Below are positions 15,349 through 26,709 of a stretch of 32,000 nt of DNA, in pieces (the stretch's first letter is position 1; each line of letters opens with the position of its first letter). A model generated the notes under the pieces. That model did not search any database. It had not been told where the DNA came from and saw only the letters and a list, made by a program, of their open reading frames with translations. A program made the translations under genes and the position numbers. The stretch covers positions 2,460,001 to 2,492,000 of the forward strand of contig NZ_CP147990.1 in NCBI RefSeq assembly GCF_037902255.1, read 5' to 3'. Origin of the DNA: Candidatus Electrothrix sp. GW3-4 (lineage in GTDB: Bacteria > Desulfobacterota > Desulfobulbia > Desulfobulbales > Desulfobulbaceae).

Positions 15349-15765
15349 TCATTTTCCCTCAAAGGTATTTTCTACCAAGGGCTTGGCATCAACCTGTCCT
15401 ACATGACATTGGGTACAGAAATACCAGCGCTGGGAAATACTTTCCCCTTTCTTTCCGTCCCTATCGGTATAATGGGTCTGGAAGGGTTTCGGGGCACCAG
15501 AGCCCTCCACTCCGTGACACCCTAAGCAGTCGTTTCTCTTTGTTGAAATCGCCATTCCCGTTATAGCATGGGCAATGAGTGGCGGTTGATGGGCCGAGGT
15601 TCGGGGCACAACAGCACCGGGTGGCTGCCAGTCCATATCCACGGCAGGAGTTGATTCAGCTGGAATATCCAGGCCCCCGCGTAAGGATTGCACATCCTCG
15701 CCATGGGCAAGGGAAAAAAAACAAACAGTTATCGTCCCGAAAAAAGGGAATAATATCTTTTTCAT
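15349..15765 (-). CDS. napB: Periplasmic nitrate reductase diheme cytochrome c subunit
   Basis: Signal peptide MKKILFPFFGTITVCFFSLAHG and two CxxCH motifs (CLGCH, CTQCH) in NapB-like contexts. I preferred the ATG at 15765, which follows GGAG at SD spacing. An alternative ATG at 15777 overlaps the napH stop (TGATG). Confidence 0.8.
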   Translation of the reverse strand: MKKILFPFFGTITVCFFSLAHGEDVQSLRGGLDIPAESTPAVDMDWQPPGAVVPRTSAHQPPLIAHAITGMAISTKRNDCLGCHGVEGSGAPKPFQTHYTDRDGKKGESISQRWYFCTQCHVGQVDAKPLVENTFEGK

Positions 15766-15776
15766 AGCGTTCTCCA

Positions 15777-16622
15777 TCAGATTCGTCGGGAAAAACGAAA
15801 AACATTATGCGGACAGATGTCAATACAGCGCCCGCAGTTCAGACAGTTTTTTGCAAGAATAAACGGTGAGCTCTGCGCATCACCTTTGAGCGCAGGCCGG
15901 ATGACCTGGGGTTCAGGACAGACAGCAAAACAATCGCCGCAATCGGTACATTGCCCTCGTCCAGCAGCCTTTATTCTCAGAAGAGCAACAAAGCTCAACA
16001 GGCTGTACATGGCTCCCATGGGGCAGAGATGCCCGCACCAAGCACGCCGCAGCAGAAAAGCATCAAAGGCAAAAATGGCCAGGATGAAAATCCATCCCAT
16101 CCCCATACCGAACAACAGACCCCGCTGCAACATGGTCACCGGGTTGAGCCATTCATAAACAATGGTTCCGCTGACAGCAGACAAGATAAGAATCGCCCCC
16201 ATGAACCCATAGCGCGTCTTCTTGCTCAGCTGGAGGACTTTTTTCATCCCCATCCTCCTGTTCAACCAGGCAGCTGTATCAGTCACCAGGTTCACGGGGC
16301 AGACCCAGGCACAGAATACTCCGCCACCAAGCAAGGCATAGAGGACGATCACGACCAAGGCACCGACCAAGGCGCTTGATGCTGGCGAATGACCGGCTGC
16401 AAGGGATTGGAACATAATCAGCGGGTCTGTCATAGGAAGGAAACCCAAGACCTCGCTGGCTGACAGGGTTCCTCTGATAAGCCAAAGCCCGAGCAAAGGA
16501 CCTGCCAAAAAAATCCCCAGAATGGCAAGCTGCGAGATTCGACGCAGAAGCAGCCATTTATACGAGCGTACCCAACCTTTTTTTTCCACCGCCTCTTGGC
16601 CTGGCCTTCTTTTCTCGATCAT
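15777..16622 (-). CDS. napH: Membrane-bound quinol dehydrogenase subunit of the Nap system
   Basis: 281-aa ORF with four TM segments, CPVNLVTD and CGHLCPMGA motifs, and C-terminal [13 protein letters not shown] and [13 protein letters not shown] ferredoxin motifs. Its start overlaps the napG stop by 4 nt. Confidence 0.9.
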
Positions 16623-17497
16623 GGCAATTCCTCCGGCATCCGCACAGGCAATTGCAGGGCCTCAGGTATAAGGGACTGGCCTGCTTTCTCTTTCTCCTGC
16701 CAACCCAGACGATAATGGTGCCCAAGCTCACCCCGTGCCTGGGCAAGGGGCAGCACCTTGATCGCTGGATGTTCCAAAATGCAGGAACGTTCGCATTTTC
16801 CGCAGCCTGTACAGTGCTTGGAATGCACTGTGGGAATAAAACGGGCATGCATGCCGGTTCGTTGATTCGCTACCATATCCAGGGTCAGGGCCTTATCCAG
16901 TACCGGGCAGTTCCGATAGCAGACATCACAGCGCAGCCCCTGAAAACCGATGCAATTTTCATGATCAATGAGCACGGCCAGTCCCATTCTTGCCTCATAG
17001 ACGGAAGGCTCCTTCTTTTCCTCATCGAGAAGGGTCTTCTGACTCAAGGCCCCGGAAGGGCAGGCCCGGACGCAGGGCATATCCTCACATAAGCGGCAGG
17101 GACTGGTTCGGGGAACAAAATACGGGGTCCCCACCGGAACATCGCTGCCTGCTTCGGCCAAACGCAAAACCGGCTCCAGCTCTACAGAGGCGTTGGGATT
17201 CACCTCCATTGGCCCGTCGGCATTCATCTCCGGCATGTCATTATTGCGCAGGAGATTGGCATGACAGGCCCGGACACATTGCCCGCAACGCAGGCAGGCT
17301 GCCTGGAACGCCTTTTCCGGCAGAGCCCCTGGTGGGCGTATTGCCCGGGCAGGCACAGCCTGAGCAGAGCGCTGATAGGCCCCCAGCCCCACAGCCAGCA
17401 CAAAGGCCCCAGCAGCAGCTGACAGGGTATCTCTCAGAAAGCGACGACGTCCCTCCTCCTCCCTGTTATGGTGCTGTCTTGTTTCTCTTTCATCCAT
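16619..17497 (-). CDS. napG: Periplasmic ferredoxin-type subunit of the Nap quinol dehydrogenase
   Basis: 292-aa ORF with a twin-arginine signal ([17 protein letters not shown]) and four Cys clusters ([45 protein letters not shown]). Confidence 0.9.
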
Positions 17498-17531: not shown

Positions 17532-20024
17532 TTAGGCCTTGGTCACCTTGACGGCACATTTTTTATAATCCGTTTCTTTGGAGATCGGACAGGTGGCATC
17601 CAGAGTCAGCTTATTGACCAGGCGGCCTGCATCAAACCAGGGCACAAACACCAGCCCTTCCGGCGGCTTATTCCTTCCTCTGGTCTCCAGAGGACAGGTA
17701 ATCTCACCCCGACGGGAAGCAAGCTTGACCAGCTGCCCGCGCTTGAGGCCCCGTTTTTCCGCATCCTTGGGATGCATAAAGACCTGAGCATCAGGCACAG
17801 CCCGGTACAGCTCCGGCACCCTTCTGGTCATGGAACCGGAATGCCAATGCTCCAGGACCCGACCGGTACAGAGCCAGAGATCATACTCCTTATCCGGTGA
17901 TTCCGCAGGCGGCTCATAGGGCAAGGCAAAGATCACCGCCTTACCATCGAGCTTACCGTAAAAACGAATGCCCTCACCCTTCTTCACATAGGGATCATAG
18001 CCTTCCCGGAACCGCCACAGGGTTTCTTTATTATCCACCACCGGCCAACGCAGGCCACGTGCCTTATGATACATCTCAAAGGGGGCCAGGTCATGACCAT
18101 GTCCCCGGCCAAAGCTGGCATACTCCTCAAACAGGCCCTTTTGCAGGTAGAAACCAAAATGATGAGCCTCGTCGTTATCGTGCCCCTTTTGCAGTTCGCT
18201 CAAGGGGAACTTATCCACCTGTCCATTGGTATAGAGCACCTCATACAGGGTCTTGCCCTTATAGGCTGGATTCTTGTCCAGGAGCTCCTGAGGCCAGATC
18301 TCATCGGTTGTGAAGTACTTGGAAAACTCCACCAGCTGCCAGAGATCACTCTTTGCCTCACCCGGTGCCTTGACCTGCTGGCGGAAAAACTGGGTCCGAC
18401 GTTCCGCATTGCCATAGGCCCCTTCCTTTTCTGTCCACATGGCTGTGGGCAGGATCAGATCACCAGCCATCGCCGTGACCGTGGGATAGGGATCAGAAAC
18501 CACGACAAAGTTTTTCGGATTGCGGTAGCCAGGATAGGCTTCCTCGTTGATATTGGCAGCGGCCTGCATGTTATTATTACACATGACCCAATAGGCATTG
18601 AGCTTCCCGTCCTTAAGCATCCTGTTCTGAAGCACAGCATGATAGCCAGGTTTCCCAGGAATGGTACCAGCGGGTAATTTCCAGATCTTCTCTGCTATCT
18701 CACGATGCTTGGGATTTTTCACCACCATGTCAGCAGGCAGGCGATGAGAGAAGGTACCCACCTCACGGGCCGTACCGCAGGCCGAGGGCTGGCCGGTGAG
18801 CGAAAAGGGGCCATTGCCTGGTTCGGAGATCTTGCCGGTGAGCAGATGGATATTATAGCAGAGCTGATTGGCCCAGGTGCCACGGGTATGTTGATTAAAG
18901 CCCATGGTCCAGTAGGAGACCACCTTGCGCTTGGGATCTGCATAGAGCTCAGCCAGAGCCTCTAAATCCTTTTTTGGCACCCCGGATATCTCATGGGCCT
19001 TGTCCAAGGTGTACTCGGAGACATACTTGGCATACTCCTCAAAGGTGTACTCTTTTGAGCCACCTGTATTCGCAGCATTGGCAGCCTTTTTTTCCCTAGG
19101 GTCTTCGGGACGCAGACCATAGCCGATATCGGTATTACCGATACGAAAATTGATGTGCTTGTCGACAAAATCCTTATTCACCTTGTTATTCTTAATAATA
19201 TAATTGGCAATATAATTCATGATGGCCAGATCGCTCTGGGGTTTGAACACCATAGGAATATCTGCCAGGTCAAAACAACGGTGCTCATAGGTAGAAAGCA
19301 CGGCCACCTTGACATGATTCGCTGTCAGGCGTCGATTAGTGAGCCGGGACCAAAGAATAGGGTGCATCTCCGCCATGTTGGAGCCCCAGAGGACAAAGGC
19401 ATCTGCATTCTCCAGGTCATCATAACAGCCCATAGGCTCGTCAATGCCAAAGGTACGCATAAAACCCGCAACAGCTGAGGCCATACAATGGCGGGCATTG
19501 GGATCAAGATTATTGGAGAGAAAACCTGCCTTAAAGAGCTTGGCAGCGGCATAGCCTTCCCAGACCTGCCATTGCCCGGAACCGAACATACCCACCGTGG
19601 TTGGTCCGTTCTTGTGAATCGCCTCTTTAAATTTCTCGGCCATGATCTTGAAGGCCTCCTCCCAGGAGACCGGAGTAAATTCGCCGTTTTTATCGTACTT
19701 GCCGTTTTTCTTGCGCAGCAAAGGTTTGGTGAGGCGATCCTTGCCGTACATGATCTTGGTCAGGAAATAACCCTTGATACAGTTCAACCCCTTATTCACC
19801 GGGGCATCAGGGTCGCCCTGGGTCGCCACAATCCGACCGTCCTTGGTCCCCACCAAGACACCGCAACCTGTACCGCAAAAACGACAAGGTGCCTTATCCC
19901 ATCGGATCCCCTTATCCCCCTCAGCAGCCAAGGCCTTTTGCGTGGCCGGGAGCTGCGCACCTGCAACAGCGGCAGCGGCCATTGCAGCGTTGGCCTTAAT
20001 AAAATCACGCCTGTTTAGCTTCAT
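17532..20024 (-). CDS. napA: Periplasmic nitrate reductase catalytic molybdopterin subunit
   Basis: 830-aa ORF with a Tat signal ([19 protein letters not shown]), the N-terminal 4Fe-4S motif CRFCGTGCG and the Mo-ligand context ARHCMASAV. It appears collinear with NapA throughout. Confidence 0.97.
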
Positions 20025-20045: not shown

Positions 20046-20288
20046 TTATACGCACTCTTCATCGCAATAGTTATAGATAAGGGACGCAGCAAGAACACCC
20101 TGCGTTTTTTGCACATCCATCATCACATCGGAGGGCACATTATCCGGCGTGTCTTCCAAGGTAATAACGATAGAGCCCTCGTCGTTGTTCACAGCATGGA
20201 TCTCCACACCGGAAAACTCTGCCAGACGTTGCTGGACCGCTTCCGAAGTATCAGGGGAGACCCGGACAACAATGCCGGAAATATTCAT
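20046..20288 (-). CDS. napD: NapA maturation chaperone
   Basis: The 80-aa ORF MNISGIVVRVSPDTSEAVQQRLAEFSGVEIHAVNNDEGSIVITLE has NapD-like sequence and sits directly upstream of napA. Its start overlaps the napF stop by 4 nt. Confidence 0.8.
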   Translation of the reverse strand: MNISGIVVRVSPDTSEAVQQRLAEFSGVEIHAVNNDEGSIVITLEDTPDNVPSDVMMDVQKTQGVLAASLIYNYCDEECV

Positions 20289-20863
20289 GCGTCACCTCGT
20301 GGTAGAGATTGATTGAGAGATTGCTTGAAAGACTGATTTTCGATATATTGGAGTGAAATGGCCTGAACAGGGCAGCCTGCAACGCAGGCCCCACAGCCAT
20401 TGCATTGTTCAGGCAGGATTTGTGGAAGCAGGTCGTCCTGACCTCCTCTGGCAAAAACAATTGCCTCTTGTTCACATTGTTCCTGACAGAGCTGACAGAG
20501 GACCTTTTTCTCCAGCAGACAATCCTGCTGAACAACAACACGGAGCTGCCAGGGAGGGGTATTTGGGGAAAAGGAGAGGGCACCAATTGTACAGCTGCGG
20601 GCGCAGTCCCCGCAGAAGGTGCATGGCCCTTTGGAAAAATCCATAATCGGCAGCTTATTTTCTCCCGAAATGATCAGCTCCTCGGCACAGGAAGATACAC
20701 ATGCAGCGCAGCCAGTACACAGGGTCTGAAAGGTCTCAGGATCAGATGACCAGGGAGGAAAAACTCTGTTTTGCTGTTCTTCTGAACAGTTATCCACCCT
20801 TTCCACATCTACCTGCAGGAGGTATTCAAGACATTTATTTACAAAAAAGGAGGCCAAACTCAT
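20285..20863 (-). CDS. napF: Cytoplasmic ferredoxin-type Nap accessory protein
   Basis: 192-aa ORF with no signal peptide. Four Cys-cluster motifs (CTGCAACVSSC, CTFCGDCARSC, CQLCQEQC, CNGCGACVAGCP). It is the first gene of the operon, as in napFDAGHB(C). Confidence 0.8.
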   Translation of the reverse strand: MSLASFFVNKCLEYLLQVDVERVDNCSEEQQNRVFPPWSSDPETFQTLCTGCAACVSSCAEELIISGENKLPIMDFSKGPCTFCGDCARSCTIGALSFSPNTPPWQLRVVVQQDCLLEKKVLCQLCQEQCEQEAIVFARGGQDDLLPQILPEQCNGCGACVAGCPVQAISLQYIENQSFKQSLNQSLPRGDA

Positions 20864-21095
20864 ATCTCTACACCCAGACTACCTTACCTACCTTACACAA
20901 AAGGCGATAAAAAAGACGCCACCAGACAACGCTGTCGCGTTATCCATCCCTTGCATAATTGTAACCATTTTTACATTTACAAAACTATCAAATTAACCTA
21001 CTAATGAGAGGTTCCCTACTCTTTGCTCTTCTGCACTCTCCTGAGCTCATGAAAGCTGTATAGGTATTACCTACTGAAAACAAGACAGCCGGTCC

Positions 21096-21109
21096 TTGAT
21101 ATACATCAA
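21096..21109. promoter_or_regulatory. Perfect FNR/CRP-family consensus box TTGAT-ATAC-ATCAA
   Basis: Read directly: ccTTGATatacATCAAaa. It lies in the napF / Crp-Fnr divergent intergenic region, 14 nt upstream of the regulator ATG (21123) and 233 nt from the napF ATG. Confidence 0.65.
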
Positions 21110-21122
21110 AAAATGTTATTTT

Positions 21123-21800
21123 ATGCTTGATAGAGACGAAAAAAAAACAATTCTGGCAGGCTCCATGCTTTTTCAGAAACTTTCTGATGAGCTGATTAAC
21201 CAGCTGGTAAATCTGGCCCGGCAAAAAAACTATCAAAAAGGAGAGACCATTTTTCTGGAGGGCTGGCCGGTTGCTGGCTTTTATCTTGTCGCCCAGGGAC
21301 AGGTGAAAATTTTCAAATCTTCACCAAACGGAAAAGAACAAATATTCTATGTCCTGGGCCCTGGAGAGCCCTTTGGACTGACCCCGATTTTTCATAACAA
21401 GACATTTCCCGCCTGTGCCTCAAGCATGCTTCCATCCACCACCCTTTTCTTTCCCAGAGCGGAATTTCTCCGCATGACAAACACCCATCCGCCCTTAGCG
21501 CTGTCCATGCTGGCCGGGCTGTCGCAGCGTCTGTGTAAACTCTCCATAAAACTAGGTGACCTCGCACTCAAAGAGGTGCCACAACGTCTGGTTGCGCACC
21601 TTATCTACCTTTCCCAAAAACAGGGAAAAACCGACCGAATATGCCTTGACATGCCCAAATCACAACTCGCCTGCCTGCTAGGTACCAGCCCGGAAAATCT
21701 CTCCAGAATCTTTGCCAATATGAGCCGTACTGGCCAAATCCGGGTACACGGCAACATGATTGAGTTCCTCTGCTACCAAAAACTTCTTCAGGACAACTAA
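21123..21800 (+). CDS. Crp/Fnr-family transcriptional regulator lacking the FNR N-terminal Cys cluster
   Basis: Contains a cNMP-binding-like beta-roll (GETIFLEGWPVAGFYLVAQGQVKIF) and a C-terminal HTH with the E--SR recognition motif (SPENLSRIF). I moved the start to the ATG at 21123, because the ORF-track start at 21096 is a TTG inside the FNR box. Confidence 0.85.
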   Translation: MLDRDEKKTILAGSMLFQKLSDELINQLVNLARQKNYQKGETIFLEGWPVAGFYLVAQGQVKIFKSSPNGKEQIFYVLGPGEPFGLTPIFHNKTFPACASSMLPSTTLFFPRAEFLRMTNTHPPLALSMLAGLSQRLCKLSIKLGDLALKEVPQRLVAHLIYLSQKQGKTDRICLDMPKSQLACLLGTSPENLSRIFANMSRTGQIRVHGNMIEFLCYQKLLQDN

Positions 21801-21836
21801 AACACCTCCTTTTCCTGCCCTTGTTTTTTTCATTTT

Positions 21837-21850
21837 TTGACCTAGATCAA
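21837..21850. promoter_or_regulatory. Near-consensus FNR/CRP-family box TTGAC-CTAG-ATCAA upstream of the octaheme cytochrome gene
   Basis: Read directly: one mismatch to TTGAT-N4-ATCAA. It lies about 212 nt upstream of the ATG at 22062 and just after the regulator stop. Confidence 0.5.
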
Positions 21851-22061
21851 GGCATCCACTCATGATAACAACTAGATTACTTAAAAATCGTTTACGCTAA
21901 CAAGATCGGGAACCGGTCCGACTGTAGGCAAAACACCGATCCACTCCTGCGTACTCAAGGCTGTTAAAAAAAGACCATGCCTTTTCATAGAGATAAAGTT
22001 CGGCAAATGCGATCGGATCGAGCGATCGCCTATATTCAACTTTTTTGAACAGGAGGATATT

Positions 22062-23531
22062 ATGAGAGTGGTATTGTGGACGGCTGCCTTGGCGCTGGCA
22101 GTCGGAATACAAGGTGGGAACGTGCAGGCCGCGCAGAAAAGCGGGCTGCCCAGCCAATTGTCAGAGGAAACCAAAACATGTTTGCAATGTCATAAAGACA
22201 TTAACCGGGGCATGTATCAACAATGGGGATCCAGTAAACATTTCGGCGCCAATGTGGGCTGTTACGAATGTCATCAGGCCGACGCTGGGGACAAAGATGC
22301 TATGCAGCATAACGGCTTCACTGTTTCCATTATTGTTTCACCCAAGGATTGTGCCAAATGTCATGAAAAAGAGGTCAAGGAATTTGAGGGATCACATCAT
22401 TCCAAGGCCGGACAGATCATGGGTTCCCTGGACAACCTGCTTGCTGAGGTTGTTGAAGGCAACCGTGGCATGAAGACCGAAAGTTTCCCGGACGGAATTT
22501 CAGCGGCAGCGGTCAACGGTTGCTGGCAATGTCACGGATCCAAGGTTAAGATAATGAAGGATGGTCGGCTGGATCCGGCCACTTGGCCGAACAGCGGCAT
22601 TGGACGCATCAATCCTGACGGGAGCACAGGAAGTTGCGCAGCATGCCATCAACGCCATGATTTCTCTGCGGCCCAGGCCAGAAATCCTGAGAACTGCGGT
22701 AAATGTCATATGGGACCCGATCATCCGCAGCTTGAGGTCTATAATGAATCCAAGCACGGTATTGCTTTCCGGGCCAATAAGGACAAGATGAATCTCGATT
22801 CTCCGAAATGGATAGCCGGTGAAGATTACTCTGCTGCCCCGACCTGCGCCACCTGTCATATGTCCGCGACCAAAGATCTGGATATCACCCATAACGTCGG
22901 CCTCCGCATCAAGTGGAACAACCGACCGCCGATCTCCAAGCTGTCGCATACCACTGACAAACGCTGGAAGCTGGAATCTGCCAACTACACTGCTGATCAA
23001 CGCCGGAAAGACATGCAAAAAGTCTGTATCTCATGTCACAATAAAAACTTTACAGATAACTTCTTTGTCCAGTATGAAGCTCTGATTGACCTCTATCACG
23101 AGAAATTCGCCAAACCCGGCATGGAACTGTACAACAAAGCAACAGAACTGCTCAAGGTCCTCAAAGGTAAAGAGTATGCCAAGTTTGCTCAGCTCATTGA
23201 TTACACTTGGTTTGAGATCTGGCATCATGAAGGTCGTCGCGCACGTCACGGTGCGGCCATGATGGCACCGGACTACACCCATTGGCACGGCACCTATGAA
23301 GTTGCCAAGCACTGGTACGGCAAGTACATCCCGGAACTCGAAGAACTCATTGAAACGGCCAAGCACAGCGGCAATAAAGAAGCTGAGAAATTGGGTGGTG
23401 AGCTTGCAACGATGCTCGAAGATGTGAAGAAGAACGAGAACCATAAATGGTCCATCGGGCAGGAAAACGAAGCTGACAAGAAATTACGGCTTGAGCGTAA
23501 GAAAGAATACGACGCTGGCTACGCCAACTAA
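22062..23531 (+). CDS. Hydroxylamine-oxidoreductase-family octaheme cytochrome c (epsilon-Hao-like; probable periplasmic nitrite reductase)
   Basis: 489-aa ORF with signal peptide MRVVLWTAALALAVGIQGGNVQA. Eight CxxCH motifs (CLQCH, CYECH, CAKCH, CWQCH, CAACH, CGKCH, CATCH, CISCH). HAO-family signatures CHMGPDHPQLEVYNESKHG and WHHEGRRARHGAAMMAPDY. Strong SD (AGGAGG). Confidence 0.85.
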   Translation: MRVVLWTAALALAVGIQGGNVQAAQKSGLPSQLSEETKTCLQCHKDINRGMYQQWGSSKHFGANVGCYECHQADAGDKDAMQHNGFTVSIIVSPKDCAKCHEKEVKEFEGSHHSKAGQIMGSLDNLLAEVVEGNRGMKTESFPDGISAAAVNGCWQCHGSKVKIMKDGRLDPATWPNSGIGRINPDGSTGSCAACHQRHDFSAAQARNPENCGKCHMGPDHPQLEVYNESKHGIAFRANKDKMNLDSPKWIAGEDYSAAPTCATCHMSATKDLDITHNVGLRIKWNNRPPISKLSHTTDKRWKLESANYTADQRRKDMQKVCISCHNKNFTDNFFVQYEALIDLYHEKFAKPGMELYNKATELLKVLKGKEYAKFAQLIDYTWFEIWHHEGRRARHGAAMMAPDYTHWHGTYEVAKHWYGKYIPELEELIETAKHSGNKEAEKLGGELATMLEDVKKNENHKWSIGQENEADKKLRLERKKEYDAGYAN

Positions 23532-23590
23532 GCACAGGAGAGTATGTAGCAAAACAGTAAACCAATAAACCGGACGATTGATTATCCGCA

Positions 23591-23625
23591 AGGCCGCCCA
23601 GAGCACTCTGGGCGGCCTCTTTTTG
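23591..23625 (+). terminator. Rho-independent terminator of the octaheme cytochrome gene
   Basis: AGGCCGCCCAGAG / CTCTGGGCGGCCT inverted repeat followed by CTTTTT. Confidence 0.75.
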
Positions 23626-23640
23626 GGAAGCTGCTTCTCA

Positions 23641-23779
23641 TCCCCACATATGTGGGGCGTAGTTTCGCACCAGGGCAAGCACGGTCCTGCCGTCTCACTG
23701 ATCACAGTTCATGGGATCCCAGTCTCTCGTTGAGCATCACCCCTTATACTCAGGCTTCTTGACCGCCATCCTAACGCTC
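23641..23779 (-). pseudogene. Decayed internal fragment of a RhuM/Fic(Doc)-family gene, paralogous to the intact gene at 27493-28494
   Basis: Nucleotide similarity seen directly: 23656-23700 (ggcgtagtttcgcaccagggcaagcacggtcctgccgtc-tcactga) against 27994-28040 (ggcatagtttcgcaccaaagaaaggatggtcctgccgtcatcactga). The minus-strand translation with stops and one frameshift reads ER*DGGQEA*V*GVMLNERLGSHEL / DGRTVLALVRNYAPHMWG. It aligns to QRLVEKGGAEVRQVLDLLSETLENHALVSDDGRTILSLVRNYARTWQLLW, roughly residues 125-172 of the intact protein. Confidence 0.6.
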
Positions 23780-23800
23780 GAAATACCTGAGCCCATTTTT

Positions 23801-24406
23801 TTATACATCCTCTGTCCTCAGCCCCCGGACATAATTGCGCACCAAGGATTCGGCCAGCACCTCTGCGGATTCCGCATGGATAATATCCAGCTTACCGCTC
23901 ACCGCAAGGGCGCATATCCCATGCAGTCCCGCCCAAAGCACTCGCGCTGCCCGCTCTGCCCTTTCAGTGTCATCCTCCACTAAGGGGACAACCATTCGAG
24001 CGACCAACAAAAAGAGCTCATCAATCTGTTGCTGATGCCACTCCGGCAGGGTGTTCCCCGGTGCCAATTTATGCTCCAGCACCAACGACCACAGATTATA
24101 GTTTTCCCGACAGAAGACGACATAGGACTGGCCCAGTCGTATGAGGCCGGTGACCGCATCATCATCCTGCCTGGTGTCCGCCAGGAGCCGGGATTTTAAT
24201 TCACTCAGGGTCACACCATTCACCCTCAGGATAATTTCATCAAGACTGCTGAAGACGTTATATATTGTACCAACGGCACAGCCAATCTTCTGGGCGATTT
24301 TTCTGACCGTTAAAGAGGATGAACCATGCTCTCTCACTGTTGCAGTCGCAACTTCAATGACAGTGACCCGCAATTGTCGGTATGCCACTTTTTGTCCACG
24401 TCCCAT
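23801..24406 (-). CDS. TetR/AcrR-family transcriptional regulator
   Basis: 201-aa ORF with the N-terminal HTH LTVRKIAQKIGCAVGTIYNVFSSLDEII. It is divergent from the VIT-vWA gene. Confidence 0.9.
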   Translation of the reverse strand: MGRGQKVAYRQLRVTVIEVATATVREHGSSSLTVRKIAQKIGCAVGTIYNVFSSLDEIILRVNGVTLSELKSRLLADTRQDDDAVTGLIRLGQSYVVFCRENYNLWSLVLEHKLAPGNTLPEWHQQQIDELFLLVARMVVPLVEDDTERAERAARVLWAGLHGICALAVSGKLDIIHAESAEVLAESLVRNYVRGLRTEDV

Positions 24407-24598: not shown

Positions 24599-26709
24599 AT
24601 GAAACGCATCAATCAACTCGTTGCCAACGTCCTGCTCTACTGCCTGTTCCCCTTGCTCGGAGCTGGATCTGCTCAAGCAGCCGGTCTGCTCACCCCAAGC
24701 GACCATAGCCTGCCAGCCCTGGAAATCAAGGATCACCGCGTGCAAGTGGTTATTGAGGACGGCTACGCCATCACCACGGTGGAACAGGTCTTTCATAATC
24801 CGCATGCACAGGATCTTGAGGCGATGTATTCCTTTCCAGTACCGGAAAAGGCTGCGGTTGCAGAGTTCACCCTGTGGATCGACAATAAGCCGGTACACGG
24901 TGAAGTGCTGGAAAAGGACAAGGCCAGAACGATCTATGAAGAACAGAAGGCTGCCGGAGAGGACGCCGGGCTGACCGAAAAAGACAGTTACAAGACCTTT
25001 GACATCATGGTGTCGCCGGTGCGGGCGGGACAGGACACCCGAATCCGGATCGGCTATATCCAGCCGGTCAAGGTGGACAGTTCTATGGGACGTTATGTCT
25101 ATCCCTTGGAGGAAGGCGGGGTGGATGACGCCAAGCTCTCCTTCTGGACAGCCAATGAAAAGGTTACCCATACCTTCCGTTTTGATCTGATCCTGCGGCC
25201 CGGCTATCCGGTGGACGGGATACGCCTGCCCAACCACCCTACAGCCACCATTGAACACAAGGGAGACAGCTACCATGTCCATCTCGGCAACAGCAGCGGT
25301 CCCCCTCTCCAGAGGCGATCGTTGATACGGAAAACAGGAAAGGAAACACGGCAGCGCGCCCGGAAACTGGACAGAAGATTGCCCAGACAACAAGCCTGCA
25401 ACAACCGGGTGCAGCCTTTACTCTGGACAGGGATATTGTGGTCTACTATCGCCACGCGGAAAACCTGCCCGGTGCAGTCGACCTGGTCACCTATAAGCCG
25501 GAACAGGGAAAGACAGGTACCTTTATGCTCACGCTCACTCCGGCCATGGATCTCAAACCCATCACCGAGGGCCGGGACTGGCTTTTTATCCTGGATATTT
25601 CGGGATCCATGAGTGGCAAGTATCACACCCTGGCAGAAGGCGTCAGCCGGGCTTTGCAAAAGATGGCCCCTGATGAGCGATTCCGAATAATCCTGTTCAA
25701 TGATTCCGCTGCTGAACTGACCCAAGGCTATACCCCGGCCACCCCGGAGAACGTGCAGCAATATATCGACAAGGTCGGGAAGATCGGGCCTCATGGGAGT
25801 ACCAATGTCTACGACGGCCTGTACAAGGGCTTGAAGGGTCTGGACAGCGACCGAACCAGCGCGGTCCTCCTGGTGACCGATGGGGTGGCCAATGTGGGGG
25901 TTACCAAACAAAAGGACTTTATCAAACTGATCCGCAGCTATGATGTACGCCTCTTCACCTTTATCATGGGCAACAGTGCCAACCTCCCCCTGCTCACCGC
26001 CATCACCGATGCCTCCAACGGTTTTGCCATGACGGTTTCCAACAGCGACGACATTGTCGGCTCCATCCTGCTGGCCCAATCCAAGGTCACCCATGAGGCC
26101 CTGCACGGGGCAAAACTTACAATCAAAGGCATCAAGACCTTTGACCTGCTGCCGGAGAAAATCGGCAGCCTCTATCGCGGGCAGCAGCTGATCATGTTCG
26201 GTCATTACAGCAGGGGCGGCCAAGCGAAAGTCACCCTGAGCGGCAAGATCTCTGGTGAAGAAAAGATTTACCAGAGCGAGTTTATCTTCCCGGAGACCTC
26301 CTCAGCAAACCCTGAACTGGAACGACTCTGGGCCTATGCCAGCATTGAGCAGCTCAGCCGGGAGATGGAAGATTTCGGCGAAGATGCCGATATGAAACAG
26401 GCGATAACCGATCTGGGCGTTCAGTACGGCCTGGTCACCGATTACACCTCTATGATTGTGGTACGGGACGGGGTGTTCAAGAAACTCGGTATCGAACGGA
26501 GAAACACCAAGCGGTTACAACGGGAATTCGCTGCCCAGAAGGAACGGGCTGCCAAACCACTTGTACAACGTCGGGCTGATACGGCACGCCCCATGTTTAA
26601 GAGCAAGCGGCCCACCACGCGCCGTTCTGGTGGTGGAAGCTTTGACCTGATCTCTTTGCTTGTGCTCTTACCCTTGGTCTGGATCGGGCGCAGAAAAAAA
26701 CAGGCCTAA
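24599..26709 (+). pseudogene. VIT-domain plus von Willebrand factor A-domain protein with a C-terminal GlyGly-CTERM sorting signal. The reading frame is interrupted by a 1-nt frameshift near 25301-25305
   Basis: ORF 24599-25612 encodes a signal peptide (LLYCLFPLLGAGSAQA) and a VIT-like N-domain up to ...HVHLGNSSG, then turns into Arg-rich nonsense. A different frame is open from 25255 and reads SPSPEAIVDTENRKGN...FTLDRDIVVYYR into ORF 25438-26709, which carries the vWA MIDAS motif DISGSMSG and VLLVTDGVANVG. The C-terminus RRSGGGSFDLISLLVLLPLVWIGRRKKQA is Gly-Gly plus a TM helix plus a basic tail. Confidence 0.8.

Follow-up and report, generated by a model that had tools for sequence, protein, structure and literature searches.

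We analysed a 32,000-nucleotide stretch of the closed genome of Candidatus Electrothrix sp. GW3-4 (4.64 Mb, 97% complete), hereafter the window, which contains hao, a gene for an octahaem cytochrome of the hydroxylamine oxidoreductase (HAO) family. The periplasmic nitrate reductase genes napFDAGHB lie on the minus strand and diverge from a Crp/Fnr-family regulator gene, which is followed by hao on the plus strand (Table 1). The initial annotation, made from the sequence, had placed hao beside nap, and the cluster is complete; every gene of it scores above its NCBIfam or Pfam cut-off.

By sequence inspection, the hao product starts with a positive n-region followed by a hydrophobic core, and its AlphaFold2 model has an N-terminal helix before a stretch of low confidence at residues 22-26. 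It contains exactly eight CxxCH motifs, at residues 40, 67, 97, 154, 192, 212, 262, and 322, all of which are invariant in an alignment of 23 sequences of relatives, and a motif scan of the 489 residues found no variant haem motif, CxxCK included. The two HAO-family signatures are at residues 218-233 (GPDHPQLEVYNESKHG) and 387-401 (WHHEGRRARHGAAMM). Thus the Sec signal, the eight motifs, and the signatures that were first noticed are all present, and they show a protein predicted to be Sec-exported and to bind eight c-type haems. No hydrophobic segment was found at its C-terminus.

The product matches Pfam PF13447 with 95.7 bits (cut-off 21.9) and reached no NCBIfam equivalog. Because a library of 1.84 billion representatives yields 1724 relatives at E ≤ 1e-3, the family match is far beyond chance. 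The closest solved structure by sequence is IhOCC of Ignicoccus hospitalis (4qo5), with an E value of 2e-52 (6.5e-85 with the family profile) and 27% identity. It is followed among PDB sequences by Nitrosomonas HAO, anammox reductive HAO 6h5l, HOX, and HDH, the HAOs being at about 1e-21. The haem motifs of IhOCC come in the same order, but its host and gene context are unlike those of hao. IhOCC is reportedly membrane-associated, and I. hospitalis is not known to respire nitrate.

When the AlphaFold2 monomer model (predicted local distance difference test score 90.6, predicted template-modelling score 0.85) was searched with Foldseek, all 11 matches at E ≤ 0.001 were HAO-family chains, with a template-modelling score of 0.67 for 4qo5 and about 0.5 for the others. 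NrfA and ONR chains were not significant in this search, and ONR/NrfA-type chains matched the family profile weakly, at E values of 1e-4 to 1e-7 over about 60-85 residues. In the profile search, CxxCH motifs 5-8 fall in the main stretch aligned with the HAO of Nitrosomonas europaea (NeHAO). For motifs 1-3 the alignment is confined to weak, separate stretches, one of which has motif 4 at its very edge. In the PDB sequence alignment, Asp220-His221 stands opposite the active-site Asp267-His268 of NeHAO. As modelled, the protein shows the HAO fold with an Asp-His pair at the predicted catalytic haem-4 pocket.

Oxidative HAO has a cross-link tyrosine, which is Tyr467 in mature NeHAO and Tyr491 in its precursor. 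When a profile of 23 relatives was aligned with 4fas by HMMER, W465-T466-Y467 of NeHAO fell opposite Y405-T406-H407 of the hao product, and the same alignment gave W-T-T for IhOCC and V-S-W for the anammox protein Kustc0458. An alignment by MAFFT L-INS-i with a genuine N. europaea-type HAO (L084:167-1876) again put His407 in the tyrosine column. Because His407 fills this column in two independent alignments, the hao product is, as far as residues tell, a Tyr-less, reductive-type member of the HAO family; the initial annotation had named the absence of this tyrosine as a check to be made. The column is variable among relatives (H/Q/W/N/D/T). Tyr405, on the other hand, pairs with Trp465/489 of HAO, two residues before the cross-link, and with a Trp of IhOCC. 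The L084 sequence, which has 1084 bits to N. europaea HAO 6m0p, served only as an alignment reference. Incidentally, its contig is short (about 3 kb available) and belongs to a genome that shares its order with ‘Nitrospira sp. BS150m-G55’, where bin contamination or recent transfer is possible.

The hao product is 90% identical to the protein of Ca. Electrothrix aarhusensis MCF, 88% to that of E. laxa, 85% to that of Electrothrix sp. YB6, and 71-75% to the Ca. Electronema PJ and TJ copies. Cable-bacterial copies make one clade in an 86-sequence tree, with a support of 100 in the Shimodaira-Hasegawa-like approximate likelihood ratio test (SH-aLRT). By these sequence comparisons, the protein is the Candidatus Electrothrix orthologue of the cable-bacterial pMHC/pOCC.

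This orthologue has been described before. Marzocchi et al. (bioRxiv 10.1101/2020.02.22.960823) reported pMHC next to nap in Ca. Electronema sp. GS (aureum), 73.8% identical to that of E. aarhusiensis MCF, and proposed it as an ammonium-forming nitrite reductase. They detected dissimilatory reduction of nitrate to ammonium (DNRA) by 15N labelling in Electronema culture, found that each of the eight nap-pMHC genes ranks within the top 100 by expression, and explicitly stated that homologues of NrfH, NrfBCD, and CymA are lacking. Hiralal et al. 2024 (PMC10926707) found nap and ‘pOCC’ in the closed Ca. Electrothrix scaldis genome and remarked on the missing quinol-linked donor. Because the orthologous pMHC/pOCC with nap, including the missing donor, has been published for cable bacteria, neither the gene nor its proposed role is new in them, Electrothrix included. 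The locus here resembles the published ones in orthology, in adjoining a full nap cluster, and in belonging to a genome that lacks NrfA and Nir and has no NrfH, NrfBCD, or CymA donor. It differs in arrangement: the Electronema genes run napF-D-D-A-G-H-B-pMHC on one strand, whereas here napD is single, nap is divergent, and a Crp/Fnr regulator gene flanked by FNR-type boxes precedes hao.

Two groups of characterised relatives are instructive. The likening of the protein to the reductive epsilon-Hao of Campylobacterota in the initial annotation holds for the family and for the lack of the tyrosine, but not for the clade: in the tree of Marzocchi et al., cable pMHC is separate from and sister to epsilon-Hao, and the nearest solved relative is IhOCC. 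Epsilon-Hao is likewise a Tyr-less octahaem reductase whose gene is in or beside nap where NrfA is absent, and it reduced nitrite and hydroxylamine in vitro according to Haase et al. 2017, as that work is cited in PMC8042395. The other relative, BOGUAY_0691 (PMC6449678), is an orange octahaem cytochrome from Guaymas Ca. Maribeggiatoa; it belongs to the same multi-phylum clade, is 57% identical to the Electronema protein (Marzocchi et al.), and has nap genes upstream. The native protein reduces nitrite, and also has hydroxylamine and hydrazine oxidase activities.

Distribution of hao was compared in 119 Desulfobulbaceae genomes, and orthologues (at least 72% identity) were confined to the two genera of cable bacteria. 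Among 23 cable-bacteria genomes, 15 have both nap and hao, five have nap alone, and three have neither; hao without nap was seen in a single genome with a fragmentary assembly, so 15 of the 16 hao-positive genomes also carry nap. In the nap-only Electrothrix genomes G103 and G105 (L134:1-10590 and L135:1-12240), synteny with the window extends over the regulator gene and napFDAGHB but hao is absent, and CRISPR-Cas genes and repeat-like open reading frames (ORFs) lie beside the regulator gene, where hao would be. By this distribution, hao acts like an accessory of Nap, in keeping with a step that follows nitrate reduction. Other HAO-family paralogues are common in Desulfobulbaceae that are not cable bacteria. 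One type consists of frames of about 531 aa that are 55-59% identical over residues 37-292 and contain an insertion, and another is about 40% identical with 440-490 aa.

Other nitrite-handling genes were searched for in the closed genome. NrfA (PF02335) and the NapC/NirT/NrfH family (PF03264) have no match anywhere in it, NirK was not found in the whole-genome search, and no NirB-class enzyme scores above the cut-off. There is no true NirS in it either, as the sole PF02239 match has 21 bits (34.7 with neighbouring hits in frame) and lies in a 1342-aa frame. The absence of nrfA/nrfH, napC, and nirS/nirK, first noted for the window, therefore extends to the whole genome. Among the 18 ORFs with at least two CxxCH motifs in the genome, hao is the sole one that matches a catalytic multihaem family; ten other multihaem ORFs that were scanned belong to generic cytochrome c families (c3, c7, c554, and similar) or have no match. 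The genome also contains hcp (748 bits, above the cut-off) at G000:C1:2578681-2581581, about 100 kb from hao, and directly downstream of it a gene for a 213-aa NIR_SIR siroheme protein.

FNR/CRP-type palindromes of the pattern TTGAY-N4-RTCAA flank the regulator gene, one on the nap side and the other on the hao side. The pattern occurs at 28 sites in the genome, about eight of which are intergenic. Every one of the five Electrothrix loci has the nap-side box, at about -860 to -1090 relative to hao, and two of them besides the window, L003 and L004, have a match to the hao-side box between -198 and -230. Another box of the same pattern, TTGATCTGCGTCAA, lies 119 nt upstream of hcp. The boxes at nap/regulator, hao, and hcp suggest that these genes may form a small Crp/Fnr-type nitrogen-oxide regulon. 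The regulator itself reached no NCBIfam equivalog, and its start is uncertain, as the TTG chosen by the ORF caller, at 21096, falls inside the nap-side box. Among 80 loci compared, a regulator at the nap-hao position is conserved only in those of Electrothrix; one hao-less genome of the Electronema genus retains a regulator homologue beside napF.

Downstream of hao, the strong terminator of the initial annotation is present as a GC-rich stem with a T run. Together with the upstream box and a promoter-like site, it makes monocistronic transcription of hao, as first annotated, plausible, but no second terminator was detected that would part hao from the regulator gene. The promoter-like site is TAGATT at 21873-21878, whose distance from the box at 21837-21850 suits a class-II FNR-type promoter centred there. 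Transcription is predicted to start near 21885, which would leave about 177 nt of leader with a GCGATCG hairpin in it. No Rfam element was found in 20800-23850. Elsewhere in the window, at 24599-26709, the overlap of the VIT and vWA ORFs, which lie in different frames, resembles a frameshift.

Table 1 Features of the nap-hao locus, in window positions
Feature	Position	Strand	Description
hao, octahaem HAO-family cytochrome gene (cable-bacterial pMHC/pOCC orthologue)	22062..23531	+	489-aa ORF
Predicted Sec signal peptide	22062..22130	+	Residues 1-23, V21-Q22-A23 preceding the likely cleavage site; by sequence inspection
Shine-Dalgarno AGGAGG	22051..22056	+	5 nt before the hao ATG
Intrinsic terminator	23591..23625	+	12-bp stem with 9 GC pairs at 23591-23618, then T run
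FNR/CRP-type palindrome TTGACctagATCAA	21837..21850		212 nt upstream of the hao start
Second FNR/CRP-type palindrome TTGATatacATCAA	21096..21109		napF-regulator divergent region
Crp/Fnr-family regulator gene	21114..21800	+	Between nap and hao; cNMP_binding and HTH_Crp_2 domains
napF	20285..20863	-	TIGR00402, 109.3 bits (cut-off 102.2)
napD	20046..20288	-	PF03927, 77.7 bits, above the Pfam cut-off
napA, Tat signal	17532..20024	-	NF010055, 1603 bits (cut-off 904); TAT_signal match
napG	16619..17497	-	NF007012, 332 bits (cut-off 269)
napH, membrane quinol dehydrogenase subunit	15777..16622	-	NF007013, 399 bits (cut-off 234)
napB, dihaem cytochrome c	15349..15777	-	PF03892, 106.8 bits, above the Pfam cut-off; two CxxCH

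We propose that the hao product is probably a reductive octahaem enzyme, which turns the nitrite made by NapAB into ammonium under Crp/Fnr-type control together with nap. NapAB would make nitrite in the periplasm, and the octahaem protein would reduce it by six electrons to ammonium, so that DNRA would run by Nap and a Hao-like enzyme in a genome without NrfA or Nir. The Crp/Fnr-type regulator would control hao, nap, and its own gene through the shared boxes. A Nap plus Hao route from nitrate to ammonium had been suggested in the initial annotation, and it is supported by the Tyr-less HAO family of the protein, the adjoining complete nap cluster, and the genome without other nitrite reductases.

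Several observations weigh against ammonium formation by this enzyme or lend it less support than they might. No enzyme of the exact cable pMHC clade is known to form ammonium, and the Tyr-less anammox HAOr (Kustc0458) makes nitric oxide (NO), not ammonium. The recombinant Beggiatoa homologue BOGUAY_0691 lost its nitrite-reductase activity upon purification (PMC6449678). In Electronema, up-regulation of the nap-pMHC genes under nitrate was not statistically significant (Marzocchi et al.). Because five cable-bacteria genomes retain nap without hao, Nap does not need hao. The search for an electron donor found no dedicated quinol dehydrogenase linked to hao. Transcript data give little help. The region 22044-23571 is covered at 88-95% identity by contigs from four sediment/estuary RNA libraries, which belong to four studies, but these contigs come from relatives and were retrieved with the hao gene itself, so they do not rank its expression, and they show neither transcript ends nor strand. 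In the sequencing-run search, no run contained more than 0.11 of the sampled words, and contigs only were used. What they show is that hao copies of close relatives occur in RNA libraries, and nothing beyond. That the contigs leave the regulator gene and most of nap uncovered carries no evidential weight.

The product of HAOr raises another course, in which nitrite is reduced only in part, either to NO as by Kustc0458 or to hydroxylamine (the ‘reverse HURM’ idea, from Nautilia), with Hcp finishing the reduction or detoxifying the intermediate. The hcp gene about 100 kb from hao, its upstream FNR-type box, and the NIR_SIR gene downstream would all suit such a course. However, the presence of Hcp is not specific because it is widespread as a nitrosative-stress enzyme. 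Moreover, epsilon-Hao of the sister clade reduces nitrite and hydroxylamine directly, by the account in PMC8042395, and DNRA has been measured with 15N in Electronema culture, making partial reduction unlikely. The same genes could instead work in the cytoplasm, where the NIR_SIR siroheme protein, encoded next to hcp under the FNR-type box, and Hcp would consume the bulk of nitrite and leave the octahaem protein only to detoxify periplasmic nitrite, NO, or hydroxylamine. We give this division of labour a low probability, as a NirB-class enzyme is lacking above the cut-off and, under nitrate, the orthologue in Electronema belongs to the 100 genes with the highest expression.

Roles outside nitrite reduction are still less probable. 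The protein could act on sulfur substrates such as sulfite, polysulfide, or tetrathionate, or serve as a general periplasmic conduit from the conductive fibres to other acceptors, considering that IhOCC, the nearest solved relative, is from a sulfur-respiring archaeon, that multihaem enzymes of the superfamily are promiscuous, and that cable bacteria live by sulfur oxidation. Against such a role, which we hold to be quite improbable, stand the tight linkage to nap in cable bacteria (15 of 16 hao-positive genomes), the linkage of hao to Nap or to Nap plus NrfCD modules in other phyla, and the regulator boxes common to hao, nap, and hcp. Oxidation of hydroxylamine as by the HAO of N. europaea (1fgj, 4fas, 6m0p) has next to no probability. 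The two proteins share the family, the fold, the eight haems, and the active-site Asp-His, and Tyr405 lies just two residues before the cross-link position. Yet this position, in a variable column, holds His407, Tyr405 aligns with the Trp of HAO and IhOCC, Arg288 is opposite the active-site Tyr334, and identity to oxidative HAOs is 17-19% in Foldseek structural alignments, being 18-19% for the N. europaea enzyme. Furthermore, no amo gene was seen in the window (a genome-wide amo search was not made), nor was a cytochrome c554/cM552 partner, and the genome has no match to the NapC/NirT family, that of cM552.

If nitrite-to-ammonium reduction is the role of the octahaem enzyme, its electrons must come from some donor, which the initial annotation had left unsettled. 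That caution is borne out. In addition to the genome-wide absence of NapC/NrfH, no cytochrome/iron-sulfur (FeS)/NrfD or NapC/NrfH gene was found within 6 kb of hao here, nor near hao in the 30 loci of the Nap-linked subclade described below. Neighbour genes were clustered in 74 orthologous loci from many phyla. In a sister subclade of 39 members (Verrucomicrobiota, Planctomycetota, Hydrogenedentota, and others), 57-66% identical to the hao product, 25 have genes for a cytochrome c, a twin-arginine translocation (Tat) FeS protein like NrfC/DsrO, and an NrfD-like protein directly upstream of hao. In contrast, the subclade of cable bacteria and Nitrospirota has this module beside hao in 0 of 30 members, the neighbours being Nap genes in 15 and nothing recognisable in 15.

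The module-bearing loci resemble E. coli NrfABCD and the four-gene locus of Thermosulfurimonas dismutans and Dissulfuribacter thermophilus (PMC5276818), in which the cytochrome-NrfC-NrfD-Hao design was described earlier, whereas hao of the Nap-linked subclade has no module alongside. In two contigs of metagenome-assembled genomes from Sumerlaeota and Sedimentisphaerales (L053, L061), the genes run cytochrome c-NrfC-NrfD-hao-napA-napB on a single strand, and neither genome has NapH above the cut-off. From this gene order and the lack of NapH, one quinol module may serve both reductases in these two genomes.

The best homologue of the hao-linked modules of other phyla in the genome studied here is a distal operon at G000:C1:3120377-3123580, 640 kb from hao, with identities of 50%, 37%, and 36%. 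This operon, the sole NrfCD-type module of the genome, encodes a Tat FeS protein that resembles DsrO/NrfC but stays below cut-offs, an NrfD/DsrP-like membrane protein, and a tetrahaem cytochrome of 297 aa. The NrfD is the only NrfD-family match to the query at E ≤ 1e-40 in the genome and makes its own clade, being neither canonical DsrP nor nested among the hao-linked NrfDs. The operon is conserved at 69-90% in both cable genera, whether hao is present or not, and matches a published locus, dsrOhPh-tetrahaem, for which a link from quinol to periplasmic cytochromes has been proposed (PMC13047784). As a dedicated donor to hao it was rejected, for it is present in hao-negative cable genomes, has an NrfD of a separate clade, and is that published locus; a general link from quinol to the periplasm is a possible function. 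Incidentally, genome G101 (closed, 90% complete) has hao but no NrfD-like match at E ≤ 1e-40, which we did not use since frameshifts could split a match.

Candidates for the donor are NapGH/NapB, or periplasmic cytochromes that are fed by the conductive fibres or by the dsrOhPh-tetrahaem module. We tentatively suggest, as one possibility, that in the Nap-linked subclade of cable bacteria and Nitrospirota the octahaem enzyme has no quinol dehydrogenase of its own and shares NapGH with NapA, perhaps via NapB; alternatively, in cable bacteria, it would be supplied directly by the network of conductive fibres and periplasmic cytochromes. With such direct supply, nitrite reduction would be non-energy-conserving. 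Sharing of NapGH would mirror the sister subclade, where one cytochrome-NrfC-NrfD module shares an operon with hao and napAB.

To the published account of pMHC/pOCC, this analysis makes modest additions: the absence of the tyrosine at the residue level, the genome-wide lack of other nitrite reductases, and the counts of nap and hao co-occurrence, as well as the division of the orthologues into a Nap-linked and an NrfCD-linked subclade and the rejection of the distal module as a partner dedicated to hao.

Cable bacteria affect nitrogen retention in sediments. If they form ammonium from nitrite with the octahaem enzyme, their DNRA would escape nrfA-based surveys. How the enzyme is fed with electrons decides whether cathodic reduction of nitrate and nitrite conserves energy, and the pattern of Nap-linked orthologues without a module, next to a sister subclade with cytochrome-NrfC-NrfD, narrows the donor candidates although it does not settle them. 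Should the enzyme share NapGH, or be fed by the fibres, this would be a new wiring for DNRA.

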